Positions 5,497 through 52,133 of a stretch of 52,406 nucleotides of DNA are shown here, one piece after another; positions within the stretch are counted from its first letter, which is position 1, and every line of letters begins with the position of its first letter. Below the pieces are notes generated by a model. It saw nothing but the letters and a program-made list of their open reading frames with translations, did not search any database and had not been told where the DNA came from. The DNA comes from Acidobacteriota bacterium (GTDB taxonomy: Bacteria; Acidobacteriota; Polarisedimenticolia; SMYD01), in NCBI GenBank assembly GCA_046757965.1, contig JBHHZI010000005.1, positions 1 through 52,406 on the forward strand, given 5' to 3'. A program made the translations under genes and the position numbers.

Positions 5497-5557
5497 CTGG
5501 ATCCACGCCGTCGTGCGCGGCCCCGCGCACCGCGGGACATGCACGCAACCAGCCCAC

Positions 5558-5586
5558 AGCTTACAGGGCCGACTTCCACGCCGCAA
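5558..5586 (-). promoter_or_regulatory. Putative sigma70-type promoter for the GT4/ligase/GT4 operon
   Basis: TTGCGG-N17-TAAGCT on the minus strand in the spacer downstream of mfd. Confidence 0.5.
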
Positions 5587-5617
5587 ATAGCCCGTCTTCC
5601 CTCCGGTGGGATCCACT

Positions 5618-9858: not shown

Positions 9859-9875
9859 CCGGCTACGCGGCACCG

Positions 9876-11042
9876 TCAGGCGCCGGCTCCAGGCGGCGTG
9901 CCGCCCTCTTCAAGATACCTCGCATACGGCACCGCCGCGCCGCTCCGGATGATATAGATGGTCGGCACCGCCACCACGTCCCCGCCCGCGTTGCCGAAGA
10001 CGATGTTCCCGGTGACACCGGTGTACTCGGTGGCCGGGCTGCGCAGAGCCAGCAGCATGTCCCGGGAGTCCAGGTGGCCCTGCCGCATCACCTGAGTCAG
10101 CAGGCGGACCGCGTCATATCCATAGGCCGCATAGTTGCCCGGCGCGCGCCCGTAACGGGCCATGAACGTGGTCGTGAAGCGCCGGGCCTCGTCGAGGTTG
10201 CCGGTGGCGCGAAAATCAGGTCGGCTGAAGACGACTCCCTCGGCGGCCACACCAGCCCGGGCCGGAAACTCATCAGTGATGGAACCCGAGCAGAAGATCG
10301 GAACCGCAACACCTGCCTTGCGAAGGGCACGGGTCACGTCTGCGACCATCTGGTCGTAACCGATCAGATAGATGGCATCCGGCGTCAGCCCGGCGGTATC
10401 GTCGACCATGTCCGAGAAATCACTCTGCGCCACACCGACGTTGAACACCTTCAGCACCTCCCGGTTCTTCTTGCGGCGGAACCGGTCGAGCAAGGCCTTC
10501 TTGTAGCCCGCTCCGTACTCGTCATGCACGGCAAAGACCACCAGCGTGTGCAGATGGAGCTCGCTGGTCATCAGTTCCGCCATCCGGCCACCCTCCACCA
10601 CGTCGGATGGATGAACGCGAAAGAAGTAGACGGATCGGCCGGTGAGGGCGGGCGAACTGGCGGCCGGGGAGAGCAGGATCACCCGGGCCGGATCGGTCAC
10701 CTCGGCGAGAATCTTCCTGGTGACGCTGCTCGACACCGCGCCGATGATCGAGGCAACATGATCGTCGTCGACCAGCTGGTGGGCCGCCGCCACCCCGGTG
10801 GCCGGGTCCGTGGCGCTGTCCTTGTAGATCAGGCGCAGAGGCTGGCCGCCCACGCCCCCCTCGTCGTTGATCTGCTGCAGGGCCAGATCCATCCCCTCGC
10901 GGATCATCTTTCCGTAGCTGGCCCCCCGACCGGTGGCCGGCAGGATGACGCCCGTCACCGGTTCGACAGGGCCGCCACACGATCCGAGGGCCAGGGCCAG
11001 GGCGACGCCGGCCGGCAGCAGGACGAGATGGCGGCGTGTCAT
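9876..11042 (-). CDS. Type 1 periplasmic-binding (LivJ/branched-chain amino acid-like) lipoprotein
   Basis: Signal peptide ending LALGSC (lipobox). GVILPATG, IN..GGV.G, AAYGYDAV and GVTG.I.F motifs. RBS GGGAGG before ATG 11042. Confidence 0.85.
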   Translation of the reverse strand: MTRRHLVLLPAGVALALALGSCGGPVEPVTGVILPATGRGASYGKMIREGMDLALQQINDEGGVGGQPLRLIYKDSATDPATGVAAAHQLVDDDHVASIIGAVSSSVTRKILAEVTDPARVILLSPAASSPALTGRSVYFFRVHPSDVVEGGRMAELMTSELHLHTLVVFAVHDEYGAGYKKALLDRFRRKKNREVLKVFNVGVAQSDFSDMVDDTAGLTPDAIYLIGYDQMVADVTRALRKAGVAVPIFCSGSITDEFPARAGVAAEGVVFSRPDFRATGNLDEARRFTTTFMARYGRAPGNYAAYGYDAVRLLTQVMRQGHLDSRDMLLALRSPATEYTGVTGNIVFGNAGGDVVAVPTIYIIRSGAAVPYARYLEEGGTPPGAGA

Positions 11043-11097
11043 CGGGGCCTCCCGTGGGCCTCGCCGGAGCCGGACCGCCCCCAACATATCCCGTGGT

Positions 11098-11508
11098 TCA
11101 GCGCGACCCCGACGTCTCGAGGCGGGCGCGGGCCCGCTCCAGTGCCGCCCGGGCTCGCTCCAGATCGATGGTCGCATCGTCAAGCGCTGCCAGCCGCTTC
11201 TCGGCGCGGCTCATCGACGCCCTGGCCCTCTCCACGTCGATCTCGTGCGCTGCCTCGGCGGTCTCCGCCAGCACCGAGACCCGGTCAGGCAGAATCTCCG
11301 CGAACCCAGAGGAGACGGCGGCCTGGTGTGCGTGCCCGCCCTTGTGCCACCGCAGGACGCCCACGCCCAGACCGGTCATCAGCGGCGTGTGCCCGGGGCG
11401 CACCCCCAGACTGCCCAGCGATCCGGGCAGGACAACCTCGTCCACATCCTCCGCCAGCACCCGGCGGTTCGCAGTCACCACATCCAGCGCGATCTTGTCG
11501 GCTCGCAT
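11098..11508 (-). CDS. atpC: F1 ATP synthase epsilon subunit
   Basis: LPGSLGSLGVRPGHTP, VSSGFAEI and IDVERA motifs; follows atpD. Confidence 0.95.
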   Translation of the reverse strand: MRADKIALDVVTANRRVLAEDVDEVVLPGSLGSLGVRPGHTPLMTGLGVGVLRWHKGGHAHQAAVSSGFAEILPDRVSVLAETAEAAHEIDVERARASMSRAEKRLAALDDATIDLERARAALERARARLETSGSR

Positions 11509-11529
11509 CACGACTCCGTGTCAGGCCGG

Positions 11530-13918
<2,389 letters not shown>

Positions 13919-15454
13919 TCAGCTCACCTTGCGCAGGCTCAGAAACGAGTCCTTGGCCACCTGGATGGCCTGGAGGATCTTCTCGCGCAGCTCGTCAGAG
14001 AGCTTGCCCTTCGTTCCCTCCTCCACGATGGCGGCCAGCAGATCGGAGTAGGAGTTGTCGAACACCTCGTAGAGCTTGGTCTCGAACGGCCCGATCTGCT
14101 CGATATCGAGGTCATCCAGACAGCCTGCCGTCGCCGCCGTGATGATGAGGATCTGCTTCTCGACCGACAGTGGCGAGTACTGATTCTGCTTCAGGATCTC
14201 CACCAGGCGCTTTCCGCGGGCCAGCTGAGCCTGGGTCGTCTTGTCGAGATCGGATCCGAACTGGGCGAACGCGGCGAGCTCGCGGTACTGGGCCAGTTCC
14301 AGACGCAGCGTGCCGGCGACCGCCTTCATCGCCTTGATCTGGGCGTTGCCGCCGACCCGTGACACCGACAGGCCGGCGTTGACGGCCGGCTTGACGCCGG
14401 AGTGAAAAAGGTCCGTCTCGAGAAAGATCTGACCATCGGTGATCGACACGACGTTGGTGGGAATGTAGGTCGAGATATCGCCCGCCTGGGTCTCGATCAC
14501 CGGCAGTGCGGTCAACGAACCCCCGCCCTTCTCGTCACTGAGCATCGCGGCGCGCTCCAGCAGCCGGCTGTGGAGGTAGAACACATCGCCGGGAAACGCC
14601 TCGCGCCCGGGCGGGCGCCGGAGGAGCAGGGAGATCTCACGGTACGCAGCGGCGTGCTTGCTGAGATCGTCATAGATGCACAGGGCGTGACGCCCGTGGT
14701 CGCGGAAGTACTCGCCCATGGCGCAGCCGGCGAACGGCGCCAGGTACTGCAGCGGGGCCGGCTCGGAGGCCGCGGCCGAGACCACGATGGCGCTGTCCAT
14801 GGCGCCGTACTCCTCCAGCGTCTGCACCACGTTGGCCACGGTCGAGGCCTTCTGACCGATGGCGACATAGATACTGATGACGCCGGTCGCCCGCTGGTTG
14901 ATGATGGTGTCCAGCGCCAGCGCCGTCTTGCCGGTCTGGCGGTCGCCGATGATCAGCTCTCGCTGCCCGCGGCCGATGGGAATCATGCCATCGACCGGCT
15001 TCAGACCGGTCTGCAGCGGGATCTTGACCGGCTGGCGATCGACCACGCCGGGAGCGATGCGCTCCACCGGCGCGAATTCATCGGTCTCCACCGGTCCCTT
15101 GCCGTCGATGGGAGTGCCGAGAGGATCCACCACACGGCCGATGAGTGCCTCGCCCACCGGCACCTGCATGATGCGACCCGTTCGCCTGACCTTGTCTCCC
15201 TCGCGGACCCGGAAGAACTCGCCGAGCAGGACGACTCCGACGCTGTCCTCCTCCAGGTTGAGTGCCATGCCGCGCACGCCATCCGGCAGGTCGAGCAGCT
15301 CGCCGTACATGACCTTTTCCAGCCCGTGAACCTGGGCGATGCCGTCACCCACCGAGTCGACGATGCCTTCCTCGGCGATGTCGACCTCGGGCGTGTAACC
15401 CTCGATCTCCTGCCGGAGAATGCGGGTGATCTCTCCTGACTTGATATCCACCAT
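13919..15454 (-). CDS. atpA: F1 ATP synthase alpha subunit
   Basis: [16 protein letters not shown] and [20 protein letters not shown] motifs. ATG 15454 with RBS AGGGGAG. Confidence 0.98.
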
Positions 15455-38184: not shown

Positions 38185-41100
38185 TCACGGGATGGCGTCG
38201 CCCCCGGTGTTGGCGGCGATGACCCGGTAGAAGACGATGGCCCCGGCGTCCACCGGCTCGGCCACCGGGAACTGAAGCGCCGCGGTCGAGGCCACCGGAG
38301 TGAACGGACCCTCCGGCCGGGAGGCCGCCTCCAGCCGGTAGGCGCGGGCGGCGTCGTGGGTCGGGTCGACAGCAGGTGGCATCCAGCGTGCCTGGGTCGC
38401 GTCGTTCGCCCTCGTCAGGCGCAGGGAGGAGACGGCGTGGGGTGGTTTCTCCAGCGTGGTGATGGCGAACGTCTCATCGCTGGTGTCGCTGCCCACCGCA
38501 CCGCCCGGCGTCGAGCCGATGACCCGGATACGCGCGGCGCGGCTGTCCGGCCCGCTCACCGGCCACGCATGGCTCGTCTTCGTGAGGCCGGCGGCGAGAA
38601 CGCTCCAGGTGGCGCCGTCGTCGACGCTCAGCAGCACGTCATAGGTCAACGAACCGGACATCGGCAGCGGTTCCCAGGCGACGTCATAGACCCCGCCGGC
38701 CAGCACCAGCTCGCCACCGCGGGGTCGCAGCAGCTTCGGCCGCAGGGCCCGCACCGAGCCGCTGCCGATGAACCAGGTCTGATCCCGGACCTCGCCGGTG
38801 ATGGTGACCTGCGGCTGCTCGCCGTCGGGAAGCAGGTCGATGAAGGCCTGGCGGTCGAACTTGAGGCCGATCTCCTCGCGTCCGTCTCCGTCGGCGTCGG
38901 TGAACTCCACCGGCGCGGGATTGGCGAACAGCTTGCCATCGATGGAGACGCTGTCGATGACGATGTCATGGGGGTTGAACGGTGCCGGCAGTTGCAGCGA
39001 GGCGCGCACCGTCTGCCCCATGGAGCCCAGATTGAGGGAGCCGGGTTCGATGGCGAACTGATCCAGGTCCACCTGGCGGGAGTGGAGCGTCACCGGGATC
39101 GAGGTCACCGGATGCGCCGGGTCGTTGGTGGTGAGGTCCAGGCGGGCGAAGACATCGGCGTCGTCCAGATCCCGGGTGGTCAACGTCAGCGTCAGGGTCT
39201 GTTCTGTCCCGGGGGAGACGACGCCCGACGTGGGGTCGGCCTCGAGCCACTCCGGCCGGGGCCGGAACTCGACGGCGAGCGCGTCGTGCAGGTACGGTTC
39301 GTTGTACGCCACCAGCAGCCCGGAGGTCTTCTCGCCGTTCTGGATGCCGACCGTGGCGCTGTCCAGGATGCCGGAGAGGGTCAGGTACTGGAACAGGATG
39401 CGCCCGTCCGGGTAGAGGATGACCTGAAAGGTCAGGTCGCCGCCGGAGGTGTGGCGGGCGACGGCGTTGAACTGGATGACGAAGCGGTCCCCGTCGGCGA
39501 ACGCCTCGATGCTCTGCTTGCCGCCCAGGTCGAGGTCGTCGAAGAACGGCGCGAGGAGATTCTCGGGAACGGAGAACCCGGTATTGGGCAGCCTGTCCGG
39601 GTTGCTGAACGAGGATCGCGTGCTAGTGAAGCTCAGCCAGCCGTTGCTGCTGACGTTGACGGTGTCGAACACCTCCCCGTAGAACGGGAAGCCAAAACCG
39701 ATGGCGACGGGGCCGCTGTTGGTGTCGTCGCCGCTGATGAGCAGCGGGGAGGCGGCCGCGCTCACGTCCACCCAGGAGAAGGCCGGCCCACCCGGCTCGT
39801 CGCTGTCCGTGGCGGTGTAGCCGAACGGGTCCGGCCCCCTGAATCGCGTGGCCGTCAGGGCGCCGGTGCCGTTGGCCGATTCGTCGTCCTTGGCCAGGTC
39901 GAGCCAGTCGCCGGGCGCCGGTCCGCCCGCGGCAGCGATCGTGGCGAGCGTGTCGAGCTGCCAGACCAGGTCGGAGAGGCCGTCGTTGCGGAGCACCGCG
40001 GTCCGGGTGCGCGGCAGGGAACTGCGGGGCGGCAGGGCGGTCTCCACCGCCACCGGCTCGACGGTGATCCGGGGCGGCAGGATCGCCTCGCCTCGAAGCG
40101 CCACGGGGATCACCGGCTGGTCCGGGTCGTCGGAGGTGATGGTGAGCGTCGCCGCGAGAACGCCCGCGGCGGTCGGTGTGAAGGTGGTCGGCAGGAGGAA
40201 ACGCCCTCCAGGTGGAATGACCACCGGCGCCGAGGGCACCTGCAGGCCATCCGCGGAGGCGGACAGCGACAGCAGGTGGAGGTTTGCGTGACCCTGGTTG
40301 AGCAGGGTGACGGAGCGGGTGGTGGGGAACCCCACCGAGGCGGTGCCGAAGTCGAGCTGTTCCACGGCGCGGCCGTAGAGCAGCGTCACCGCATGCTCGT
40401 TGCGTGGGCAGAACGAGGACACACGGTCGCTGTTGGTGACGGTGAGGTCGAGGAATCCCCCTGCCAGGGCACCGCCGGCAAGATCATCGGGGGAGACCAC
40501 GAAGGCGCTGGCAGACGGCCGGCAGTCGCGGAGGCCCCTCGCCGACGGACCCAGGTCGAGGCTTCCGGCGCTCACCGTGGCGACCTCTCCGGGGTCGCCG
40601 AAATCCCCATCCACCGCCAGCCGGACGGTGAGGTCGCCGACCGGCGGGCTGGCCACCGGCAATCGGTGCGTCGTGGACGCGCCGGGCCCGTCGAAGCTGG
40701 CCACCGACTGCACGGTGACCGTCTCCGGAGCGATGGCGATGTCCGGCACCCCCTGCACGGTCAGGGAGGCGCTCACCGGCAAGGCCGGGGTGACGGGATC
40801 GTTGGAGCGCAGCGTCAGCGTCGCGTTGTAGGCGGCCGGCCGGAGACGGCGGGCGTCAAGGATGACGCTGACGTCGACGGCATTCCCGGGTGCGACGGAC
40901 CCTGACGCCGGTTCCACACGTATGAAGGCCGGCCCCGACAGCATCCTGGCGAAGCCGGGCCCGTCTCTGCCCTGGGCGACCACCACGCCGGGAACCGGCG
41001 CGCCCAGCCAGGCGACGCCGCCGTGGGTGACCGCAAAGAATGGCAGATCGGTCACCGACCAGACCGCCTCGTCCAGCGAGTAGCGCATGAGGTGGTCCTG

Positions 41101-44100
41101 ATCGGTGACCACGAACTCACGGGTGATGGGGTCGACCACCGCACCCAGATCTCCCGGGAAGGGCGGCGGATCGAGCTTTGTCCAGGTATCGGTGGCGATG
41201 TCGTAGCGGAGAAAGACCGGCGGTCTGTTGAGGTTGAATCCATCGGTGCCTCCCACAACGTAGAGCGATCCGTCGTGGAGGGCCATGCCGGCCTCCTGAA
41301 GGATGAATCGACCCGACGACAACGGCAGTCCCGCGAGAAATACGGTCCCCCCGGAGGTCGAATCGAAACGCAACAGCGACCGCCCGATGGCGATGTAGAG
41401 GAAGCGGACCCCATCACCGGCCATCGCTCCCGGCGCCAGAGCGGCGACCAGCACCGCCGGCGCCGGGTGGGTTCGCACCGCCCACGCATCATTCGCGATG
41501 TCATACACCAGGAGGACGTCGCGGGTTCCCACGTACGCCAGGTAGATCTTGCCGTCGAGAACCGACGCGGCCGCGCCGCGCCGTGCCGGCAGTGGGGCAC
41601 TCGCCAGCGGTTCCCAGACCCGAACCGACGGATCGTACCGGAAGAACGCCACCCCGTCGAAGGCCTGGCCGTAGAGGATGCCGGATGCCGGGTCGACCAC
41701 CAGGCCGGTCATCGGCACCGGCGTCGGAGCGAGAGGCTGGAGCGCGACCGGCCGTGCCGCGGCGGAGGGGGAGCCGCCCGGGCCGGACAACGTCTGCGAG
41801 GTGGCGGTGACGGCATCGGGTGGCAGCAGATCCACGTCCACGTCGAAGACGAGGTCGCTGCCCCCGGTGTTGCTCACGGTGAGGGTCTCGCTCACGATCT
41901 GTCCCTCATCCACCGTGGCGGCAAGCTGGCCGGGATCGACGTTGGCCGCCGGAGGCGCCAGTCCGGCGCCGAGCAGGGACAGATCCACCCGAGGCGATAC
42001 CGGGTCGTCACTGACCACGCGCAGCGCGGGTGGCAGCGGTCCGGCGGCTGATGGCGCGAAACGCACCATCACCTCCCCGGTGGCGCCGGGCGGCACCGTC
42101 AGTGTCTGCGGGGTGAGGGTGAGATCGGAGGCAACGTCGGCGAAGGAGAGCACGTTCAGCTCCGCGTTTCCGGCGTTGAAGAGACCGAAGGTGGCCTCGA
42201 CGGTGTTGCCGACCAGCACCTCCCCGAGGTCGAGCGACGAGGCCGGAACATGGCCCTCCACGCGCACCCGGTGTTCGTCCAGGCCGGAGCAGGAGGGAGC
42301 CACGGAGGAGGTATTGCTCACCGTGACCTCGAGCAGACCATCCGCGGCGGCGGTCGCGACCAGAGCCGGATCGAGCTGGAAGACCGTGGAGAACGGCACG
42401 CAGTCGGCGGCATTCGTCCCGATGGTGCCCAGCACCGTTCCCTCCAGCTCGACGCGGGCGGTCTCGTTGAACGCGCCGAAATCGCCGATGGCGGTGACCA
42501 CCAGGCGTGTGCCGGGCAGCAGATCGGGAGGAACCGCGAGCGAGTGGGAGGTCATGGCACCGAAGCTGAACGGGAACGAGACTCGGGATTCAACGCTGAG
42601 GGGACCGCTTGCCAGGAGGAGACGGGGTCCCGAAGTGATGACGACCCGCACCGGGACACGGATCATCGCGGCCCGCGGGTCGTTGGTGGCGATCTGGACC
42701 TCGGCCTGGAACGTCCCCGTGGCGGCCAGCCGGCCGGTGTCGATGTCGACTCCGATGAGGGTGCTGCCGCCGGGTGGGATCGTCCCGCTCCCCGATGACG
42801 TGACCAGGCTGTCCTCGGGCTGGATCCCGACGGTGTAGGTGAGCGCCGCCGTCCCGTCGTTGGACAGGACCAGCGAGCGGGAAACCTGCTGTGCCGCGAA
42901 CAGGGTCTCGTCGAGGGCGGCGGGTGTGACGCGGGCCACCGGCGGCTCCACCACCACCGCGGTCACCGGCAGCGACAGGTGCGGATTGATGAGGTCGTTG
43001 CTGTTGACCACCACCGTGCGGGAGACCGGTCCGGGGGAATTTTCCGTCAGGGTGAGCGTCACGGGGAACAACTTGTTGCGCCCCACGTTGAAGACCGGGG
43101 GCGCCGCGGTTATGCCCGGCGGCGTGGCGATGGCCACGTTCAGGACCCTGGAGCCGAGGTTCTCGATGTTGACCGTGGCCGTCCCGCTCTCGTTCTCGAA
43201 CAGATCTCCCAGGTCGATGGAGCGGACCGGTGGACGCGCGGTAAATGACACGGTATGGCGATTCACCGGGCAGGACGGCAAGATGGCGGGGGAATTGACG
43301 ATGTCGACGTGAAGGTCGCCGTCGCGCGCCAGGGACACCAGTTCACGGGTCGAGAGCGTGATCGTCCGCTTATGTGGCGTGCACGATGCCCCGGAACCCC
43401 CGACGACACCCCGGAAGACACTATTGATGAAGATGGAGGCCCGTTCGGAGACACTGCGGAAGTTGCCATCCACGACAACCTGGACAGTGGCCAGGCCGGC
43501 GGGCAGATCGTCCAGCGCGAAAGCGTGTGACGTGGTGGCGCCGGCCGTGGTGAAATCCACTGTGGAGACATCCGCCGCGCCCTCACCGCTCACCAGGATG
43601 TGCGGGACGGCGACCGAGGTCACCTGCAGGGGCACATTCAGCCTGGGCCGGACGGGATCGTTGCTGGCCACCAGGATGACGAAATCCGTTCTCCCCAGGG
43701 CCAGTCCCCGGCTGTTCACCGTAACCGTCACGGGGAGTGAGCCGTGCGGCGGGACGATGCCGGCGGATCCGCTCAGCACGACCTGCTCCTGGCCGCCCGG
43801 CATCAGCACGAGCTGGAAGGTGAGCGGACCGTCCCCGTCGTTGATCAGGGTGAGGGTTCGGGATGTCTGCTCGATCTCCGCGAGGGACACGGAGAGGAGC
43901 GCCGGTTCGACGGCGAGGCTGGCCGCAAGCTGCCCGACCGCGTGAAGCGACACCGCCGGCGCCATCTCGTCGGGATCGTTGGTCTGCAGGACGAGCTGCT
44001 CATCGACGGTGCCGAGCTGGTCCAGCGTGAAGGTGACCTCCATCGGCGCGGTGGCGCCGGCGGCAACGGTGAGCGTCTCCGGAGACACGGTGAAGGATCC

Positions 44101-47100
44101 CGCCGAGGGGATGGCCCCGAGGACCTGGAGAGGCTGAGACCCCTGGTTGGAGATGTGAACGGTGCGGGTGGCGGAATCCCCGACCGTCACCAGCGTGCCG
44201 AAATCAAGAGGCGTCAGCGAACCGGTGTATTCCAGCTCGACCTGGTGCAGGTTCTGGAAGCAGCTCGGGAATACGAGGGGAGAGTTGACGACACTCACGT
44301 CGATGAGGTGATCGGCGGCGATGGCCTGCAGCACCTCCTCATCGATGGAAAACGTCTTCCGCACGGTCGAACAGAAAGACCTCTGACCGATGATGCCGCC
44401 CAGGCTCACCCCATCAGCGAAGAGCTGCACGAAATCGCCGGGCCGAAACAGTCCGACCAGGGTCAGCGTGAGCTGCCCATCGCCGCCGATCGGTTCGATC
44501 ACCGGAAAGAGATGGTGAGTCGTGGACCCGGCGGTGAACACCCGAGTCGAGCGGGGAAATTGAACAGGTGCGGCGGACAGCTCCACGTCCGGGGCGGCCT
44601 GGATGGTGAGGGTGATCGGCACCTCCAGATGAGGCGCCCGGGGGTCATTGCTGGTCACGATGAGGTTGCCCGCGAAGCTCCCGGCGTTCAGCCCCCGCGC
44701 GTCGAGATCCACCTCGAGGTCGACGGTCTGATCTGGGGCGAGCGTGTGGAGTGTCGAGTCGACGGCGACAAACGGCGCGTTCTGGGCCGCCAGGGCGAAC
44801 TCCAGGGTGTTGTTCCCGGGATTGGACACGGTGACGGTCGTCGTGGTGTGTCCTCCCTCGGCGACGGTCGCATCGATGGTCGCCGGTGTCACCACCAGCG
44901 CCGGCGCGGGGACCGCGGTGCCACGGAGTGAAATGTCCACCTGCGGCGTGTCCGGGTCATTGGTCGTCAAGCTCAGCACGCCGTTGGCGGCGCCCGGTAT
45001 GGCCGGCGCGAACGAGATGTCGAGCATCGCGGATCCACCGGGAGCCACCGCCAGCGACGAGGCCGAGCCGACGAACTCCGGCGACGAGAACCCCACCGGG
45101 TCCACTCGCAGCAGGTCATCGCCGAGATTCTTCACCTCAAGACGTTTCTCGACGCTGTCTCCCACGACGACCACACCGAAGTCAAGGGCGGTCACGGGGC
45201 GCAGGACCGTCAGGGATACCTGGTGAGTATTCGCCAGGCAGGCGGTGAGACCCACCGAACCGGAGTTGGTCACATCCACCTCGATGACGCCATCCGATGC
45301 CAGGCTCGCGACTGTTTCCGCGTCGAGATGAAAGGTTCGGCCGGATGGGATGCACCCGAGGTCGCCAACCGTGCCGATGACGGCGGACTCCAGATGGACC
45401 GTGGCGAACTCGTCGGAGCGGTCGAAATCACCGGTCACCGTCACCGCCAGGTCGACCGGGCCGGCGAGGGAGGCGGGCAAGGGGAGGGCATGGTGCGTCG
45501 AACCTCCGGTCAGTGAGAAGCTGCTCTGGCTGGACACGGTGAGAGGATCGCCGATCAGAAGATCCGGGGTGCCGGTGATGGTGACGGCGATCGGCACATT
45601 CATGACCGGGTGCGCCGGGTCGTTGGTCGTGATCCGGATCGTCCCCTTCACCAGGCCGACCGGGTCGGAAGCGGTGCGCACGGTGAGCTGGATCGGGATG
45701 GACGCGCCGGCGTCCACCGCGCCGCGATCGGGTTGGATGTCGATCTGTGGGAGGCTCGAGGTCGGGACGATCTGGAAGCGCAGCGGACTTCCTCCGTCAT
45801 TGCGGAGAAGGAGGGCAGCGGCGGCATCCTCACCGACCGGCACGCTCGTGTTGATGGCGGCCGGCTCGACGGCCAGCTCTGGCGGCACCAGACCGCGGGC
45901 ATGGAGCGGCAGGCGGATCTCGGGCTGATCGGGGTCGTTGGTCGAGAGAAGTAGGACGGCCTCGTGCGCTCCCGTGGTGGGTGGAGTGAAGACCACCGAT
46001 ACCGGGGTCTGGTCTCCGGGCAGGAGGTCGAGTGTCTCGACGCCGGTCGCGAAGGCCGGGTCGTCCGTCTCGACCTGAACGCTCAGCAGCGCCGTGCCCG
46101 GGTTCATGACGGTGACGGACCGGGTCTTGCCGGTGCCGGTGAAGACGTCGCCGAAGTCGAGTTCATCGGTTCGACCCAGATAGGTCAGGGTGATGAAGTG
46201 GTCCTTGCGTCTGCTGCAGCTGTTCTGGGTGGAGATGGTCTCGGTGAGTTCGACCGTCACCCGTCCATCGGCGAAGAGGCGGGCCGCCTCCTCCAGCGGC
46301 AGGGTGAAATCTCGCGTGACGAGCCCACAGGTTCCGGTGTCGGAGACGGACCCGAGCACCCTTCCGTCGGCGCTCAACCGCGTGGAGGTGTCCGATGCCG
46401 GGTTCCCTGTCGAGAGCATCTCGAAGACCGGTGCGGTGCCGGGTGGCACGGGAACGTCGAAATCCTTCTCCGACTGAACGCCGTTGCTCGACCGGAAGAA
46501 GAACGACAGGAGTCGAACACTCTGGCCGGCCAGACGGATGTCTGGGATGCCGACCACGGTGATCTCGATCGGCACGACGATGGTCGCTGCCAGGGGATCG
46601 TTGGTGGCCAGGCGCAGCTCGCCCGGGAAGCGACCCGGCGCGGCGGCGGTCGTCGAGACCTGGTAGACGAGGGACATTGATGAGCCCGCCGGCACGTTCC
46701 CGGACGACGGCGTGACACTGCCCAGCGGCACCGGCCCGTCCAGGGAAAAGTCGAGATCTCCCGGTCCCCCGTTGGTCAGCGTGAGGATCCGCGAGGCCGA
46801 TTCGCCGAGCAGCAGTGTGACATCGATGGCGACGGGAGAGAGACTGGCCGACGGGGCGGCAACGCCCTGTCCGGTGAGGGCGATCATCACGGACGGGGTG
46901 TCGGGGTCGTTGGACAGCAGCGTCAGTTCGCCGGAGACCGTCGAGATGGCATCGGGAAAGATGGCGATCTCCAGGTCGGTGGTCGCGCCTGGCGCAAGGT
47001 CGAGCGTCGCGGCTTCAGGCACGAAGCGGGGCTCGCTGCTTGCGATCGAGGAGATGGTGAGTGTATCGGTGCCGAGGTTCTCCAGATGCAGCGTCCGGCT

Positions 47101-50100
47101 GTGGTGGCCACCGACCGAGACGGGACCGAAATCCAGAGCGGTGACCTCGGGTCGAAAACGGGCGCTCACATCGTGGCGGTTGATCGGGCAGGTCGGCTCG
47201 CTGTCCGCGCCGTTGGTGACGGCGATCTCGACGAGGCCGTCCGCCGCGACCGCGGCCGTCTCCGCCGGGGAGAGCAGGAAGGTGCGCTGGTGGGGCCCGC
47301 ACCCGCTGAGGCCGGATCCGACCGTTCCCAGAGTGAGCCCTTCCACCTCGACCTGCGGTCTTATGGTCACGATGTCGGCGAACGCGGTGACGACGATTGC
47401 CATCTGCGACGCCGGGGTGGCCGGGAGGGAAAGGGTCTGGACGGTCCGGGCGCCGGCCTCGGTGAACGGGGCGCTCGCATCGATCTGGATCTCGTCACCG
47501 CCCACGGCCAGGTCGGGGGAGCCGATCAGGGTCAGGTCCACCGGCACGAGGACGGACGGTTCATCGGGGTCATTGCTGTGGACGACAACATCGACATGTC
47601 GAGCGCCGGCCATCTGCCCCGTGGCGTCGAAGACCACCGGAATGACGAGCGATCCACCCGGCTCCACCGAGCCGCTGGTGAGCCCGACGCGGACCACGTT
47701 CGTGTTCGCAGGCTCCAGGGCGAGGTCGAACTCCAGGAGGCCGGTGCCCAGGTTGGCCACCGTCAGCGTGCTCTCCTGGGTGGTGCCGACCGGCAAGCTG
47801 GCCGTCAGAAAAGCCGGCGCCACGCTGACGACAGGCGGCAAGATCCCCTGGCCGGAGACCGGCAAGGTCACCACCGGCGAATCCGGGTCGTTGTTGTGCA
47901 ACGTGACGGCGCCGGAGAGGGTCTTCTCCGCTGTGGGCGTGAGGGTGAAGACGATCTGCTGGGAGCCACCTGGCGGCACCGAGAAGGTGGTCGGCGAGAT
48001 GACCAGGTCGGCGTCCGGAAAGACGATGTCGCTGACGTCCAGGGGCCGGACACCGGTGTTGCTCACGATGAGCCGCCTCTGCATCGAGCGCCCGACAAAG
48101 ATGTCCCCGAAGTCCAGCCGATCGCCGCTCACCTCCAGATCCGGGCCGCCGCTCACCTCCAGACTGACCGGCACGCGGATGAGTGGCCGGGAGGGGACGT
48201 TGGTGTCGAGTCGCAGGCTACCGGAGAAGGTCGTGTCATCGGCCATGCCGGCATCGAAGGTGACGTCGACGGTGCGGGTCTCACCGGGCGGAATGACCAG
48301 GTCAAGGGTCGAGAGATGGGCCCATTCGGGCAACTGGGCGGCCTCCAGGCGGAAATCGTCGAACTCGGCGAGTGCCAGCGGGTGAATGACGAACGGCGTG
48401 TCGCTGACATCTGGCGCGGTGATGCGCATCTCGACGCGAACCGTCTGTTCCGCGAACGGCACCAGGTCCACCGTCCGGAGTTGCCAGCCCAGATCGGTAA
48501 GGTTCAAGCTCGGGAACGGACCGGAACCGGGTGCGCCCTCCAGCACCTCGCGGGCCACCTCCGCCAGGACATTCCCCGCCAGGTCCGTGATGGTTGCCTC
48601 GTAGATGCGGGGCAGGCCGGACTGGTCGAAGAAGAACTGGAGACGATCGGAGAAGCTCAGATCCGCCTGCACCGTGCCCAGCGGCACGTGGATCTCCTGG
48701 GAGAGAACATAGGTGAGTGCGCCGTTCTGGCCGGAGAGGGGGTTGAACGCGTCGAAGAAGCCCTCCAGAGGAGCGTTGCGCGGACGCGCCGCGCCGAAGC
48801 GGCCCACTGCCCACGGGCTGGCGGGCGTCTGCGGGCCGTCCACCGTCGTGGTCCAGCCATCGAAGTCTCCCGTCTCAAAGCCCGGGTTGGTGAGGGTCAG
48901 AGGCGGCAGGATGGTCACCGCGAGCCCGTCGGTCAGATAGGTCGTGTTCGACGCGATGGTCAGACCGCTCTCCCGCGTCCCACTCTGGATGCCGACCGTG
49001 GCGCTGTCCGTGATGCCGCCGGTGTCGAGGTACTGGAAGACGATGCGTCCCCCCCGGTACAGGATGATCTCGAAGGTCAGGTCGGCCCCGCCGCCCACCC
49101 GGTTCACGTCGCTGTATTGAATGATGCAGCGGGTTCCGTCGTGCAGCACCGACACGCGGCTTCCCCGGTCGAAGTCAAGGTCGTCGAAGAAGGGAGCGAT
49201 CAGGTTCTCCGGGACCTCAGGACCCTGGTTGGGAAGCTCGTCTGGATTGCTGAAGGAGGACAGCGAGCTGGTGAAGCTCACCCAGCCGTTGGTGCTCACC
49301 TGCAGCGCATCGAAGGCGGACCCGTAGAACGGGAAGTCGAACCCGATCTCCACCGGCGCGCTGGTGACGTCATCTCCCGACAGGTCCACGGCCGTGCCGG
49401 TGTCGCGGATGTCAATCCAGGAAAACGCGGGCCCCCCTGCCATGGTGCTGTCGAGGTACGTGTAGCCGAAGAAGTCCGGGGCCGGAACAGGGGCTGTCGG
49501 GTTGGTCTCGTCACCCTTGGCCCGGGCAGTCCAGGACGCCACCGTCGCCGTGCTGGGCAGGGCGCGCTCGAAGTCCAGATCGACCACCAGATCGCTGGCG
49601 CCGGTGTTGGTGATCTGCACCGGGCGAGTCACCGTCTGACCGGTGAACAGCGTCTCGGACAGGGCGGCCGGGGCGATGGCGATGGCCGGGGCGGGCACGC
49701 CCTCGCCGGTGACAGGAATGGTCAACGACGCGCCGTTGGGCGCGTTGCTCGCCGGCGAGACGAACGCGTCCAGCGGTCCGGCGGCGGAGGGGGCGAACGT
49801 GATCTCCACGGACCGGGCCTCCCCGGCCGGGATGATGAGCTGCATGGTCTGGAGCGACAGGTCGGCCGTCGTGGAAGGAATATCCGAGATCACCAGCGCC
49901 TCCGAGCCGATGTTGTCGATGCGAAGTGTGCGGCTCTGCGTGTTGCCGACCAGCACCGGACCGAAGTCGAGTGAGGCGGGAGACACGGCGATGGCGGCGC
50001 CGGAGGCCACCCCGACCTGGAGCGGATGGCGCAGCAGCGGCGTGGCGGGATCGTTGGAGAAGACGTCGACCAGGCCGGTATAGGAGCCCGGGGCCAGCCC

Positions 50101-52083
50101 GGCCGCGTCGAGGGTGAGGGTCACCGACGCGCTCTCCCCGGCCAGGAGCCGACCGGCGGTGGGACCGGCGGTGAGGACACCCGGGACCATCTCGCCGGTG
50201 GCATCGGCCAGGAATGGTTCGGGAAGGCTCCAGTCGAGGGTGCCGAGTCCGACATTCTCCACGGTGAGGGTGGCGCGAGCGGTCTCGCCGGTGAACAGGG
50301 ACAGGGAGAGCGCATCGGGAGCGGTCGCCACGGTCGGGGCAGGCAGCGTGGTCGCCAGCGCCACGTTGCCGAACGGACCGCTGTTGGCCCAGTCATCCTT
50401 GCCCTTCACCGCGACCTGATAGGTCGTGCCGGCCGCCAGCCCGGTGAGTTCGACCGTCTGGGTCTGGCCTGCCGGCACCGGCACGGGTGATGCCGTGGCG
50501 CGCGACGCGGCATTGAAGGTGGTGGCGTCGAGAGTCTTCGTGGAGAAACGGATGTCGTAGGAGCGCACGATGCCGTCGGCCCCGTCATCGCCGGGTGCGG
50601 TCCAGGTCAGCAGGAGTGAATTGCTGGAGGCGGCCGCCGCGGCGAGATCGGTGACCGGAGACGGGGGAATGGCATCGGGCGTTGCCAGCGCATTGAACAC
50701 ATTCAGGCGGCCGCCGGAGACGGTGATGTTCTCCAGGGCTGGCAGCGGGTCGGTCCCGCCGAGAATCAGGTCCTTGATCTCCAGCGCTGTCAGTTCGGGC
50801 TGCACCGACAGGATCAGCGCGGCGGCGCCGCTGACATGGGGCGCCGCCATGGAGGTCCCGGAGGCGACGCCAAAGGCGCCGAATGGCAAGGTGCTGAGGA
50901 CATCCACACCGGGCGCTCCCAGGTCGACGGTCAGCGGGCCGAAGTTCGACGGAAACACGAAGTGGTCGTTCCTGTCGGTGGCCGCCACGGCGATGATGTT
51001 GTCGAGATCGAAGGCCGCCGGGTAGGACGGGCTGTTATCGATGTTGCGACCGGAGTTGCCGGCCGAGGCCACGAACAGCACTCCCGCTGCCCCGGCCCGG
51101 TCGATGGCGTCGAACAGGGCCTGGGAGAAATTGTCGCCTCCCCAGGAGGCATTGATGATCTGGGCTCCGATGTCGACGGCATAGTCGATGGCGCCGATGG
51201 CGCCGGCCGTGGTCCCGCCGCCGTTGGAGGCGAGAAACTTCAGAGGGAGCAGACGGACCTTCCAGCTCACCCCGGCGATGCCCACGCCGTTATCTCCCAC
51301 CGCGCCGAGGATGCCGGACACATGTGTGCCGTGGCCGTTGTCGTCGGAGGGATCATTGGAGCCGTGAACGAAGCTCCAGCCGTGGATGTCGTCGACGAAG
51401 CCGTTCATGTCATCGTCGATTCTGTTGCCGGCGATCTCGCCGGGATTGACGAAGATATTGGCGGCGAGATCGGGATGGGTGAAGTCGATGCCGGTGTCGG
51501 TCACGGCCACGAGAACGTCATGGCTCCCGGTGGTCACGTCCCAGGCCATCTCGGTGCCGATGTCCGCGCCGGGGACACCACCGTCCTGTCCGGTGTTCTT
51601 CAGCGCGTACTGGCTGACGAACTGGAGGTCATCCGGCAGTGTCTCCGCCTGGATCAGATAATTGGGCTCCACGAACTCCACGAGGGGATGCTTCCGGTAG
51701 CGCTCGACGATCTTCTCCGTGGTCTGTCCCGGAGGCAGATGCCACTGCTCGGCTCCGGAGTGAAACCTCTTGACCTTGGTGGCGTTCATCCCGCTCCGGA
51801 ACTTCTCCCGGTCGGCGACGGTGGCCCGTTTCTTGAAGTTGATGAGAATCTCACCGTCGACATGCGGCCCCAAGAGATGCGCCTGACCCTGTGAGAGCGC
51901 AATGGGCGCCGGCAGCGCGCGGCCTCTCGGGAGCGGGGTGCCGATGTGGGCGGTGGGAGTGCTTGCCGATGATGCGGTGGACTGGGCCGAGGGGTTGCTG
52001 CCGGCGGAGAGCATGCCCGCCGCACCGAGAACGACCATGAGCGAGAGAGGCCTGCCGAAAGAGACGGAATTCAACGGGCGCAT
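38185..52083 (-). CDS. Giant (4632 aa) secreted S8 subtilisin-family serine protease with FN3, repeated Ig-like (choice-of-anchor-D/ASH-like and BACON-like) stalk domains, nidogen-like, Kelch-like and unknown inserted domains
   Basis: Signal peptide and prodomain (VEFVEPNY). Catalytic motifs VAVTDTGID, HGTHVSG, ASAGN and GTSMAAPHVSG. Recurrent LDFG..VG, N.G...L and SNDP motifs. RBS GAGGGGG. Uninterrupted 13.9-kb frame. Confidence 0.93.
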   Translation of the reverse strand: MRPLNSVSFGRPLSLMVVLGAAGMLSAGSNPSAQSTASSASTPTAHIGTPLPRGRALPAPIALSQGQAHLLGPHVDGEILINFKKRATVADREKFRSGMNATKVKRFHSGAEQWHLPPGQTTEKIVERYRKHPLVEFVEPNYLIQAETLPDDLQFVSQYALKNTGQDGGVPGADIGTEMAWDVTTGSHDVLVAVTDTGIDFTHPDLAANIFVNPGEIAGNRIDDDMNGFVDDIHGWSFVHGSNDPSDDNGHGTHVSGILGAVGDNGVGIAGVSWKVRLLPLKFLASNGGGTTAGAIGAIDYAVDIGAQIINASWGGDNFSQALFDAIDRAGAAGVLFVASAGNSGRNIDNSPSYPAAFDLDNIIAVAATDRNDHFVFPSNFGPLTVDLGAPGVDVLSTLPFGAFGVASGTSMAAPHVSGAAALILSVQPELTALEIKDLILGGTDPLPALENITVSGGRLNVFNALATPDAIPPSPVTDLAAAAASSNSLLLTWTAPGDDGADGIVRSYDIRFSTKTLDATTFNAASRATASPVPVPAGQTQTVELTGLAAGTTYQVAVKGKDDWANSGPFGNVALATTLPAPTVATAPDALSLSLFTGETARATLTVENVGLGTLDWSLPEPFLADATGEMVPGVLTAGPTAGRLLAGESASVTLTLDAAGLAPGSYTGLVDVFSNDPATPLLRHPLQVGVASGAAIAVSPASLDFGPVLVGNTQSRTLRIDNIGSEALVISDIPSTTADLSLQTMQLIIPAGEARSVEITFAPSAAGPLDAFVSPASNAPNGASLTIPVTGEGVPAPAIAIAPAALSETLFTGQTVTRPVQITNTGASDLVVDLDFERALPSTATVASWTARAKGDETNPTAPVPAPDFFGYTYLDSTMAGGPAFSWIDIRDTGTAVDLSGDDVTSAPVEIGFDFPFYGSAFDALQVSTNGWVSFTSSLSSFSNPDELPNQGPEVPENLIAPFFDDLDFDRGSRVSVLHDGTRCIIQYSDVNRVGGGADLTFEIILYRGGRIVFQYLDTGGITDSATVGIQSGTRESGLTIASNTTYLTDGLAVTILPPLTLTNPGFETGDFDGWTTTVDGPQTPASPWAVGRFGAARPRNAPLEGFFDAFNPLSGQNGALTYVLSQEIHVPLGTVQADLSFSDRLQFFFDQSGLPRIYEATITDLAGNVLAEVAREVLEGAPGSGPFPSLNLTDLGWQLRTVDLVPFAEQTVRVEMRITAPDVSDTPFVIHPLALAEFDDFRLEAAQLPEWAHLSTLDLVIPPGETRTVDVTFDAGMADDTTFSGSLRLDTNVPSRPLIRVPVSLEVSGGPDLEVSGDRLDFGDIFVGRSMQRRLIVSNTGVRPLDVSDIVFPDADLVISPTTFSVPPGGSQQIVFTLTPTAEKTLSGAVTLHNNDPDSPVVTLPVSGQGILPPVVSVAPAFLTASLPVGTTQESTLTVANLGTGLLEFDLALEPANTNVVRVGLTSGSVEPGGSLVIPVVFDATGQMAGARHVDVVVHSNDPDEPSVLVPVDLTLIGSPDLAVGGDEIQIDASAPFTEAGARTVQTLSLPATPASQMAIVVTAFADIVTIRPQVEVEGLTLGTVGSGLSGCGPHQRTFLLSPAETAAVAADGLVEIAVTNGADSEPTCPINRHDVSARFRPEVTALDFGPVSVGGHHSRTLHLENLGTDTLTISSIASSEPRFVPEAATLDLAPGATTDLEIAIFPDAISTVSGELTLLSNDPDTPSVMIALTGQGVAAPSASLSPVAIDVTLLLGESASRILTLTNGGPGDLDFSLDGPVPLGSVTPSSGNVPAGSSMSLVYQVSTTAAAPGRFPGELRLATNDPLAATIVVPIEITVVGIPDIRLAGQSVRLLSFFFRSSNGVQSEKDFDVPVPPGTAPVFEMLSTGNPASDTSTRLSADGRVLGSVSDTGTCGLVTRDFTLPLEEAARLFADGRVTVELTETISTQNSCSRRKDHFITLTYLGRTDELDFGDVFTGTGKTRSVTVMNPGTALLSVQVETDDPAFATGVETLDLLPGDQTPVSVVFTPPTTGAHEAVLLLSTNDPDQPEIRLPLHARGLVPPELAVEPAAINTSVPVGEDAAAALLLRNDGGSPLRFQIVPTSSLPQIDIQPDRGAVDAGASIPIQLTVRTASDPVGLVKGTIRITTNDPAHPVMNVPIAVTITGTPDLLIGDPLTVSSQSSFSLTGGSTHHALPLPASLAGPVDLAVTVTGDFDRSDEFATVHLESAVIGTVGDLGCIPSGRTFHLDAETVASLASDGVIEVDVTNSGSVGLTACLANTHQVSLTVLRPVTALDFGVVVVGDSVEKRLEVKNLGDDLLRVDPVGFSSPEFVGSASSLAVAPGGSAMLDISFAPAIPGAANGVLSLTTNDPDTPQVDISLRGTAVPAPALVVTPATIDATVAEGGHTTTTVTVSNPGNNTLEFALAAQNAPFVAVDSTLHTLAPDQTVDLEVDLDARGLNAGSFAGNLIVTSNDPRAPHLEVPITLTIQAAPDVELSAAPVQFPRSTRVFTAGSTTHHLFPVIEPIGGDGQLTLTLVGLFRPGDFVQLFADGVSLGGIIGQRSFCSTVRKTFSIDEEVLQAIAADHLIDVSVVNSPLVFPSCFQNLHQVELEYTGSLTPLDFGTLVTVGDSATRTVHISNQGSQPLQVLGAIPSAGSFTVSPETLTVAAGATAPMEVTFTLDQLGTVDEQLVLQTNDPDEMAPAVSLHAVGQLAASLAVEPALLSVSLAEIEQTSRTLTLINDGDGPLTFQLVLMPGGQEQVVLSGSAGIVPPHGSLPVTVTVNSRGLALGRTDFVILVASNDPVRPRLNVPLQVTSVAVPHILVSGEGAADVSTVDFTTAGATTSHAFALDDLPAGLATVQVVVDGNFRSVSERASIFINSVFRGVVGGSGASCTPHKRTITLSTRELVSLARDGDLHVDIVNSPAILPSCPVNRHTVSFTARPPVRSIDLGDLFENESGTATVNIENLGSRVLNVAIATPPGITAAPPVFNVGRNKLFPVTLTLTENSPGPVSRTVVVNSNDLINPHLSLPVTAVVVEPPVARVTPAALDETLFAAQQVSRSLVLSNDGTAALTYTVGIQPEDSLVTSSGSGTIPPGGSTLIGVDIDTGRLAATGTFQAEVQIATNDPRAAMIRVPVRVVITSGPRLLLASGPLSVESRVSFPFSFGAMTSHSLAVPPDLLPGTRLVVTAIGDFGAFNETARVELEGTVLGTIGTNAADCVPFSTVFQLDPALVATAAADGLLEVTVSNTSSVAPSCSGLDEHRVRVEGHVPASSLDLGEVLVGNTVEATFGLFNAGNAELNVLSFADVASDLTLTPQTLTVPPGATGEVMVRFAPSAAGPLPPALRVVSDDPVSPRVDLSLLGAGLAPPAANVDPGQLAATVDEGQIVSETLTVSNTGGSDLVFDVDVDLLPPDAVTATSQTLSGPGGSPSAAARPVALQPLAPTPVPMTGLVVDPASGILYGQAFDGVAFFRYDPSVRVWEPLASAPLPARRGAAASVLDGKIYLAYVGTRDVLLVYDIANDAWAVRTHPAPAVLVAALAPGAMAGDGVRFLYIAIGRSLLRFDSTSGGTVFLAGLPLSSGRFILQEAGMALHDGSLYVVGGTDGFNLNRPPVFLRYDIATDTWTKLDPPPFPGDLGAVVDPITREFVVTDQDHLMRYSLDEAVWSVTDLPFFAVTHGGVAWLGAPVPGVVVAQGRDGPGFARMLSGPAFIRVEPASGSVAPGNAVDVSVILDARRLRPAAYNATLTLRSNDPVTPALPVSASLTVQGVPDIAIAPETVTVQSVASFDGPGASTTHRLPVASPPVGDLTVRLAVDGDFGDPGEVATVSAGSLDLGPSARGLRDCRPSASAFVVSPDDLAGGALAGGFLDLTVTNSDRVSSFCPRNEHAVTLLYGRAVEQLDFGTASVGFPTTRSVTLLNQGHANLHLLSLSASADGLQVPSAPVVIPPGGRFLLPTTFTPTAAGVLAATLTITSDDPDQPVIPVALRGEAILPPRITVEPVAVETALPPRSSLPRTRTAVLRNDGLSDLVWQLDTLATIAAAGGPAPGDWLDLAKDDESANGTGALTATRFRGPDPFGYTATDSDEPGGPAFSWVDVSAAASPLLISGDDTNSGPVAIGFGFPFYGEVFDTVNVSSNGWLSFTSTRSSFSNPDRLPNTGFSVPENLLAPFFDDLDLGGKQSIEAFADGDRFVIQFNAVARHTSGGDLTFQVILYPDGRILFQYLTLSGILDSATVGIQNGEKTSGLLVAYNEPYLHDALAVEFRPRPEWLEADPTSGVVSPGTEQTLTLTLTTRDLDDADVFARLDLTTNDPAHPVTSIPVTLHSRQVDLDQFAIEPGSLNLGSMGQTVRASLQLPAPFNPHDIVIDSVSIDGKLFANPAPVEFTDADGDGREEIGLKFDRQAFIDLLPDGEQPQVTITGEVRDQTWFIGSGSVRALRPKLLRPRGGELVLAGGVYDVAWEPLPMSGSLTYDVLLSVDDGATWSVLAAGLTKTSHAWPVSGPDSRAARIRVIGSTPGGAVGSDTSDETFAITTLEKPPHAVSSLRLTRANDATQARWMPPAVDPTHDAARAYRLEAASRPEGPFTPVASTAALQFPVAEPVDAGAIVFYRVIAANTGGDAIP
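40345..47523 (-). repeat. Protein-level tandem repeat, ~975-bp (~325-aa) period, seven units
   Basis: P-D-I/L-type anchors recur at ~47523, 46551, 45573, 44598, 43611, 42633 and, after an extra ~900-bp propeller insert, 40752. Each is followed by a two-Cys domain and LDFG/LDLG/IDLG. Highly diverged at DNA level. Confidence 0.85.
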
Positions 52084-52133
52084 GGTGATCCCCCTCGCTG
52101 TCTGAAACTGTTTCGCGCTGCTGGGCTCCTCAC

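Follow-up and report, generated by a model that had tools for sequence, protein, structure and literature searches.

A single gene on the 52.4-kb contig JBHHZI010000005.1 of an Acidobacteriota bacterium (52,406 nucleotides [nt], all of which were analyzed and which we call the window) encodes a 4632-amino-acid (aa) S8 protease whose body is a long series of immunoglobulin (Ig)-like domains of two alternating types, here named IgA and IgB. The gene (positions 38185..52083, reverse strand; 4632 codons plus a stop) belongs to a family in which IgB is interrupted, at one fixed loop, by whole inserted domains that differ from copy to copy and from protein to protein. We put a probability of about 60% on our reading of the protein as a predicted Sec-exported, extracellular, rod-like multidomain protease with a substrate-capturing, deseasin-like head, in which IgB serves as a socket whose loop holds either a few residues or a complete folded guest.

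One Ig-like domain type is split at a single position

Since a self-BLAST of the whole protein gave the identity hit alone, Pfam and NCBIfam scans were complemented with profiles made from the protein's own repeats. These detected 9 copies of IgA and 10 of IgB, the latter comprising 7 whole copies and 3 split ones (aa 795-839 and 1263-1307; aa 3374-3431 and 3719-3770; aa 4000-4045 and 4267-4332). Every loaded copy consists of two pieces, of which the N-terminal one aligns with the front half of the IgB profile and the C-terminal one with its rear half, so that the split falls at profile position 48|49 of 106. When the repeats were aligned (alignment A1), whole copies had a few residues at this slot and loaded copies ~290-350. 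The same point recurs in 352 split copies from 158 database proteins, whose N-terminal halves end at a median position of 48 and whose C-terminal halves start at 49 of 106.

To see how the two halves relate in space, we used AlphaFold2 (AF2) models of aa 3374-3998 (mean pLDDT 89.2) and of aa 3999-4632 (32-row alignment; mean pLDDT 87.0), and compared these predicted models with ~48,000 solved chains, taking the best 50 matches of each. A single chain, 7n6g_4C, superposed on model residues 5..339, thereby covering both IgB halves, with Z 13.0 and a root-mean-square deviation (rmsd) of 1.8 over 101 aligned residues; over the same residues, further ASH/PapD-like matches were 6fvi_A (the CEP192 ASH domain, Z 12.7), 1row_B (MSP family, 11.9) and 2ys4 (HYDIN, 11.5), so that the matches of this kind to the socket span Z 11.5-13.0 over ~100 aligned residues. 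Because single ASH/PapD chains superpose on both halves, the halves form one domain around the insert in the model, and IgB is predicted to have an ASH/PapD-like (MSP) fold that closes around its guest. The loop that holds the slot is placed between stretches modelled as strands 38-45 and 354-357. All of the best 50 matches of the aa 3999-4632 model were Ig or FN3 domains, with none to its NIDO-like part.

A reading made from the sequence alone, without database searches (hereafter the sequence-only reading), had described a B-type slot that is near-empty in most copies and filled in three; the count of 7 whole and 3 split copies and the superposition of the halves as one domain bear this out, its B-type consensus is the consensus of alignment A1, and the positions that it gave for the cargo are correct to within ~50 nt. 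Its image of a "Russian doll" overstates the case, since only one level of nesting is seen anywhere: the NIDO-like and jelly-roll domains that share a slot lie there in tandem.

Domain organization of the protein

Pfam families were matched at aa 73-141 (Fervidolysin_NPro-like), 188-441 (Peptidase_S8), 475-561 (fn3), 926-982 (NIDO) and 3598-3640 (Kelch_1). The Ig-like body matched the HYDIN/VesB Ig family PF22544 with 453.3 bits over the whole protein (13 stretches) and the NCBIfam model choice_anch_D (NF012200) with 410.6 bits against a cut-off of 45 (12 stretches). Taken singly, one IgA copy scored 49.4 bits and one IgB copy 28.8 bits to PF22544 (cut-off 25.5); IgA is thus of the choice-of-anchor-D type, and IgB is a related type with a weaker match. 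The sequence-only reading had called the B type BACON-like, and the likeness is weak: BACON_2 reached 42.8 bits over the whole protein, its best stretch lying within an IgB and no single stretch passing the cut-off, and when one IgB copy was scanned by itself, the Pfam matches with E up to 1 did not include BACON. The proposed succession of S8 domain, FN3 domain and two alternating Ig types was confirmed.

Behind the signal-like N-terminus, the order of domains (all encoded on the reverse strand) begins with the propeptide (aa 73-141; 51661..51867), the S8 catalytic domain (aa 151-473; 50665..51633) and the FN3 domain (aa 475-575; 50359..50661, delimited by Pfam and own profiles), after which ~30 beta-sandwich domains follow in series. 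The first IgB is whole (aa 579-690; 50014..50349) and is followed by IgA copy 1 (aa 697-793; 49705..49995). The second is split into an N-terminal half (aa 795-839; 49567..49701) and a C-terminal half (aa 1263-1307; 48163..48297) around a NIDO-like domain and a jelly roll, and precedes IgA copy 2 (aa 1315-1411; 47851..48141). All of these Ig-like boundaries come from own-repeat profiles. Six supermodules, each a whole IgB, a two-Cys module and an IgA, then occupy aa 1412-3372 (41968..47850), as delimited by own profiles and alignments.

The ninth IgB is split around a Kelch-type propeller into an N-terminal half (aa 3374-3431; 41791..41964; profile, alignment and model) and a C-terminal half (aa 3719-3770; 40774..40929; profile and alignment), and is followed by the seventh two-Cys module (aa 3775-3900; 40384..40761) and IgA copy 9 (aa 3899-3998; 40090..40389), both assigned by own profiles. 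The tenth holds a second NIDO-like domain between its N-terminal half (aa 4000-4045; 39949..40086) and its C-terminal half (aa 4267-4332; 39088..39285), each assigned by own profile and model. The chain ends in a family-specific tail, CT1-CT2-CT3 (aa 4334-4632; 38188..39084), recognized by profiles. CT2-CT3 is modelled as an FN3 tandem and matches 3lpw_B with Z 11.3 in the AF2 model. A Pfam scan of this tail, 299 aa in length, gave no family with E up to 1; the protein has 0 copies of the RTX motif GGxGxD, and its C-terminus shows no LPXTG or terminal sorting motif.

A deseasin-like protease head

The catalytic domain matched Peptidase_S8 (PF00082) with 183.7 bits against a cut-off of 21.8. 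The catalytic triad and oxyanion Asn of S8 proteases lie in characteristic motifs, as in subtilisin BPN', and each motif was present once: D196 in DTGID, H251 in HGTHV, N343 in AGNSG and S411 in GTSMA. The deseasin MCP-01 carries one small C-terminal PKD domain, which binds collagen. Its chain 3vv3_A was the nearest solved structure to the window protein (E 1.8e-94, 320.6 bits, aa 151-473), the next chain following at E 9.1e-50, and the catalytic motifs of the two proteins align. As the sequence-only reading had it, the triad and oxyanion Asn are intact; the catalytic set is complete, and the protease is predicted to be active.

PMC5691207 describes MCP-01, from Pseudoalteromonas sp. SM9913, as an abundant extracellular collagenolytic protease. 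The likeness to the window protein lies in the close catalytic domain and in an extracellular location, which for the window protein is predicted; the difference is that the latter continues for ~4100 further residues instead of a small PKD domain. Of the 32 Pfam families with matches in it, 25 were listed, and none of these 25 was a PKD family.

Guests of the window protein

The NIDO-like guest of the second IgB (aa 880-1075; 48859..49446) was recognized by Pfam and own profiles, and that of the tenth (aa 4098-4275; 39259..39792) by own profiles. Matches to NIDO (PF06119) reached 27.5 and 31.2 bits against a cut-off of 25, over profile positions 2-54 of 186 only. The second NIDO-like copy scored 19.4 bits, under the cut-off; in relatives the score rises to 60.5 bits, with the match likewise confined to positions 2-55. 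The NIDO-like profile also matches residues 51-189 of 8gl6_D, deposited as RemA, with E 7.2e-14. Weak NIDO-like matches (28-29% identity) were seen in the cultured actinomycetote Isoptericola (loci L032, L034 and L035), where our own profiles recognized neither these matches nor any socket halves.

The jelly-roll-type domain beside the first NIDO-like guest (aa 1076-1238; 48370..48858; own profile and Atlas) has no Pfam family, and its sequence matches in the PDB were at chance level (E 0.16 or higher). The Atlas clusters CBM_4_9 (0.92) and Cleaved_Adhesin (0.88) offer a lead only. For the Kelch-type guest (aa 3445-3700; 40984..41751), Pfam, profile and model agree: Kelch_1 scored 49.9 bits against a cut-off of 20.1, and the insert is modelled as a propeller of the six-bladed type between the IgB halves, model residues 71..323 matching the KLHL17 Kelch domain 6hrl_B (Z 24.8, rmsd 2.2, 235 aligned).

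Guests vary across a large family

The genome, of 3.5 Mb, holds two paralogues. The second, P0002 (4068 aa; contig C65, locus L001, positions 3168-15374, forward strand), shares head and tail with the window protein, and all six of its IgB copies are loaded, in chain order with a NIDO-like guest, a pair of NIDO-like and jelly-roll domains, three Kelch propellers and a further NIDO-like guest. Its gene is flanked by genes for a DUF2207 membrane protein and an M24 peptidase.

When 41 genomes were searched with the tail, long frames ending in it turned up across more than one family of the class; the unpublished genome G016 was left out of all further analysis. Among the proteins of ten regions taken from these genomes, those with four NIDO guests have 2462-2524 aa and are encoded at L012, L013 and L014 and by one gene of L011, which also encodes a five-NIDO protein. 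The latter locus (L011:731-17427, reverse strand; contig C172 of genome G025) has two family genes in tandem, for 2938 and 2524 aa, with NIDO in all of their sockets. Longer relatives carry Cys modules and Kelch guests, and one socket at L010 holds an SGL/NHL-type propeller (PF08450, 67.9 bits).

Beyond these genomes, a word-based search added 11 large proteins, and an exhaustive profile search collected 59,034 representatives with E of 0.001 or less, or 7115 when the limit was set to 1e-30, totals that include matches to FN3 only. In 120 of the best 150, one matched stretch spans the whole socket and NIDO unit. The 158 database proteins contain 352 split and 86 intact IgB copies, and 130 of the 158 have at least one split copy. 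Their 349 guests of at least 100 residues fall into 28 groups unlinked by BLAST, which our own profiles label as one NIDO/jelly-roll, one Kelch, one SGL and one S8 group and 24 unnamed groups, among which distant kinship may exist. The S8 group shows that a protease can itself occupy the slot, as it does in three sockets (P0013, P0072 and P0106).

In a Cloacimonetes metagenome-assembled genome (MAG; NBMB01000033.1; L022:3224-13516, forward strand), a propeptide plus S8 domain lies within a B-type socket. P0014 (4458 aa) has no S8 head and six sockets with guests of 202-283 aa that match no Pfam family, with Cys modules between them. In regions of unnamed guests, ThuA-like and DUF4350 matches in P0035 (aa 1116-1157) and P0070 (aa 956-1114 and 2134-2223) hint at enzyme-like guests.

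Thirty proteins share the S8 head and the CT1 tail, and span 1604-5280 aa with cargo that differs in number and kind. By our own count, NIDO occupies the first socket of 21 of them and another guest that of 3, while 6, the window protein included, have nothing there; for the last socket, the corresponding numbers are 20 with NIDO, 6 empty and 4 in another state. Smaller proteins with socket and NIDO units come, by record title, from Calditrichia, Cloacimonetes, Zixibacteria, Eisenbacteria and Caldithrix MAGs. Guests differ at the sockets of the paralogue P0002 and of the relatives, a comparison that the sequence-only reading had suggested as a check.

On a FastTree of 191 guest-stripped sockets, we counted 49 changes of guest state, where 200 shuffles gave 96 on average and never fewer than 86. 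One empty and one NIDO-loaded first socket form a sister pair (support 92), and a few other mixed pairs have support of 81-87. With ~100 columns this signal is suggestive only, and guest exchange is not told apart by it from a history in which loaded units were duplicated and lost.

Nesting itself, which the sequence-only reading had singled out as unusual, is common in the family, as 130 of 158 proteins show, and is an instance, in a new setting, of a principle published for RTX adhesins. What merits further attention is the range of guests, even proteases, that a single fixed loop accommodates. Database names of family members are "choice-of-anchor D domain-containing protein" or "S8 family serine peptidase" only, and a literature search on choice-of-anchor D proteins, bacterial NIDO and nested Ig-like adhesins gave, among the papers listed, no description of the family by title or, for choice-of-anchor D, by abstract.

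Proposed function and alternatives

From the kinship with MCP-01, the link to RemA, the tail and the relatives with type IX secretion system (T9SS) signals, we read the window protein as an exported rod with a digestive protease and binding modules at its sides. Export would proceed through Sec by way of the signal-like N-terminus. The guests (NIDO-like, CBM-like jelly roll and Kelch) would be ligand-binding and would project sideways as in RTX adhesins, tethering the protein, and possibly also the whole cell, to substrates in polymer or particle form; the deseasin-like head would digest the substrates so captured; and the two-Cys modules would stiffen or lengthen the rod beside IgA. Sockets and guests are shuffled among the family members, which range from 1600 to 5300 residues and have the same head and tail. 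More tentatively, and with the balance somewhat against it, the B-type domain may be a general display socket that takes lectin-like domains, several types of propeller, folds of unknown type and even proteases complete with propeptide at the same loop in many phyla, and the giant Acidobacteriota proteins would then be programmable capture-and-digest rods that arose as loaded and empty sockets were shuffled.

The sequence-only reading had proposed a surface or secreted adhesin-protease with the protease at the distal end. Predicted export and the intact protease agree with it, and the adhesin role is plausible given the MCP-01 kinship and the RemA link; the anchoring part was not borne out. 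Since no anchor was found, surface retention and a distal head are guesses. As to the route of export, a T9SS sorting domain closes the chain in three relatives from the profile search (P0076, P0066 and P0094). A search of the window's own genome with Por_Secre_tail (PF18962) gave no match, though the control gave no match either, and the two secretin genes of this genome do not tell a type II secretion system from pili.

Several points weigh against our reading. Bacterial NIDO-like domains, this type of Kelch domain and the jelly roll are not known to bind any ligand, and none of the listed runs with the gene is on record as RNA. The tail offers no RTX repeats, LPXTG or Pfam match by which the protein might be anchored. 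Sideways projection of the cargo is proposed by analogy with published RTX cases. The count of 49 guest-state changes depends on ~100 alignment columns and on a FastTree topology in which most mixed pairs have support below 90. Gene neighbours differ in every relative examined (8 loci), so that gene context gives no help.

Two other functions deserve weighing. The protein could be a polyprotein whose S8 head mainly cuts its own chain, the products being separate adhesin and enzyme fragments or a gingipain-like non-covalent surface complex. The second S8 domain in a socket of P0013, P0072, P0106 and L022 would suit processing in several steps, and P0066, a relative from the profile search, combines Cleaved_Adhesin domains with a T9SS tail. 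We nevertheless consider self-cleavage unlikely: the linkers between domains have only a few residues and leave little room for a protease, the frame of head, rod and tail is kept over 1604-5280 aa, and no conserved cleavage motif was seen, although none was specifically sought.

A little less probable again is a structural fibre or sheath, in which the rod itself would be the function (spacing, or cohesion of cells or biofilm), the protease would mature it and the cargo would self-associate. PMC10657474 reports that the S8 protease Vpr forms extracellular fibrils, and the Ig-like domain of Vpr (8jmw_A) was one of the structural matches to IgB, with Z 11.8; the presence of two paralogues in one 3.5-Mb genome would also fit. 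The Vpr match, however, reflects only the common Ig fold, the catalytic domain is nearest to a digestive extracellular protease, and 28 BLAST-unlinked groups of guests fit varied targets better than self-association.

Relation to known systems

A close published parallel is found in RTX adhesins. According to passages of PMC12077191, which cites Graham et al. 2024 (Proteins 92:933) on split domains, ligand-binding domains project from companion Ig-like split domains in these proteins, a relation that was used to find such domains; PMC10865825 is a related record on RTX adhesins. AhLap of Aeromonas hydrophila and FrhA of Vibrio cholerae resemble the window protein as giant fibres of tandem Ig domains with guests that bud from split Ig domains, the guests being lectin-like and other binding domains. 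In the window protein as well, an Ig-like domain is interrupted by a complete guest and, in the predicted models, closed after it. The window protein differs in having neither RTX repeats nor a type I signal, with a Sec-type signal-like N-terminus and a protease head instead; in the split fold, which is ASH/PapD-like and akin to choice-of-anchor D rather than BIg; in the position of the sockets, which lie all along the rod rather than near one end only; and in the guests of its family, which are NIDO-like, Kelch, SGL/NHL and others.

Within the family, the four-NIDO proteins (L012, L013, L014 and L011; P0015 and P0017) share the head, the tail and the alternation of IgA with an IgB socket that holds a NIDO-like guest. 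At ~2500 aa, they contrast with the window protein, which is nearly twice as long and has 7 empty sockets, a Kelch guest, NIDO plus jelly roll, and 7 two-Cys modules. The gliding adhesin RemA/RemZ of Flavobacterium johnsoniae (8gl6_D) is alike in that residues 51-189 of its chain, in the N-terminal region, are related to the NIDO-like guest and in being, according to passages of PMC10994853, a large Sec-exported surface protein. It differs in being a T9SS substrate with a C-terminal domain (CTD) and no protease, and its structure resolves the CTD only; 8gl6_D therefore gives no fold for the NIDO-like part.

If our reading holds, the split-domain rule for binding modules would extend from RTX adhesins of Gram-negative pathogens to another fold and another export route, in lineages that are mostly uncultured (Acidobacteriota and, by record title, Calditrichia, Cloacimonetes, Zixibacteria and Eisenbacteria MAGs). 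The socket also provides a sequence test, as the split at 48|49 picks out hundreds of guests, many of no known family and likely to be binding or catalytic. The family also places a bacterial kin of the animal matrix domain NIDO in a setting like that of adhesins. In vent sediments, very large tethered proteases are a possible means of attack on particulate protein. Were guests exchanged at homologous sockets, and not merely duplicated with them, the socket would be a ready scaffold for domain-insertion engineering and could open a route to what NIDO does and to its bacterial history.

The two-Cys module

A 123-residue module with two invariant Cys and an invariant His precedes 7 of the 9 IgA copies. 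Of the 15 Cys of the protein, 14 form pairs 37-38 residues apart in the seven modules, each of which likely has a disulfide; this pairing speaks for an extracellular setting. At plain junctions, a GxPDxxV motif runs directly into xxLDFG, and at module junctions, GxP-type sequence stands ahead of the module and LDFG-type sequence behind it in 22 of 22 cases (window protein, paralogue and loci). In the database set, an IgA comes directly after each of the 104 Cys modules, and an IgB stands directly before 101 of them.

The module could therefore be inserted between the first two strands of IgA or be an obligate tandem partner of it; both arrangements fit. With E up to 1 as the limit, it matched neither a Pfam family nor, in a profile search, any solved chain, and its Atlas scores are 0.87 or lower. 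The best 50 structural matches of the aa 3374-3998 model were to propellers only, with none to the Cys module or its IgA contacts. Of the two independent cargo slots that the sequence-only reading had proposed, the one in IgB thus stands, and the one in IgA was not confirmed, sequence motifs alone favouring nesting there.

Gene, start site and assembly

The open frame starts with ATG, preceded at a distance of 6 nt by a Shine-Dalgarno-like GAGGGGG (52090..52096, reverse strand), and, as had been stated, runs intact over 13.9 kb. Its first 35 residues (51979..52083, reverse strand) resemble a signal peptide, in that basic residues precede a hydrophobic stretch of 15 residues whose core, LSLMVVLGAAGMLSA, begins at aa 13; this assignment was made by inspection of the sequence. 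The public gene call on the same contig, P0003 (4562 aa), lacks the signal-like N-terminus because its called start is a TTG 70 codons past the ATG, and the segment 51871-52083 is the part so dropped.

The window is an entire contig from a bin of 303 contigs (3.52 Mb, 94% complete), and the upstream end of the gene lies only 323 nt from the contig end. The two runs with this DNA are labelled hydrothermal vent metagenome. Logan contigs from these runs, X1 and X2, represent two samples of one study, and X1 may be the source of the assembly. The X1 contigs tile the gene with 0-1 differences, one 6091-nt piece spanning 40630-46720; from X2, one piece of 3594 nt covers 41695-45288 and another bridges the abutting junction 46720/46723. 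Contigs of the two samples agree with 0-2 differences over kilobases. The repeat modules are 26-37% identical in protein (alignment A1), the longest direct DNA repeat in the gene is 107 nt at 80% identity, and the repeats are old.

A chimera of joined paralogous repeats, or a dead gene, is accordingly very improbable: fragmentation of the bin, the nearby contig end and two joints with 21-letter sides in the Logan contigs would be compatible with it, but long DNA repeats are absent, contigs of two samples agree across the gene and full-length relatives with the same frame occur in other genomes. We saw no sign of a chimeric assembly, the case that the sequence-only reading had named as one that would refute it, with support that comes from one study. 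The joints, 42737/45954 and 45130/49255, occur in contigs of both runs and skip 3216 and 4124 nt, one side consisting of 21 letters only; they are probably short words shared between repeats or with other organisms.

The giant gene adjoins genes of the replication origin and is convergent with a carboxylase operon. Between 19003 and 34503 of the window, mnmG, mnmE, yidC and rnpA lie on the reverse strand and dnaA, dnaN, a recF-like gene, gyrB and gyrA on the forward strand, and at 26-28 kb, in the neighbourhood of the origin, the G+C content drops to 0.59.

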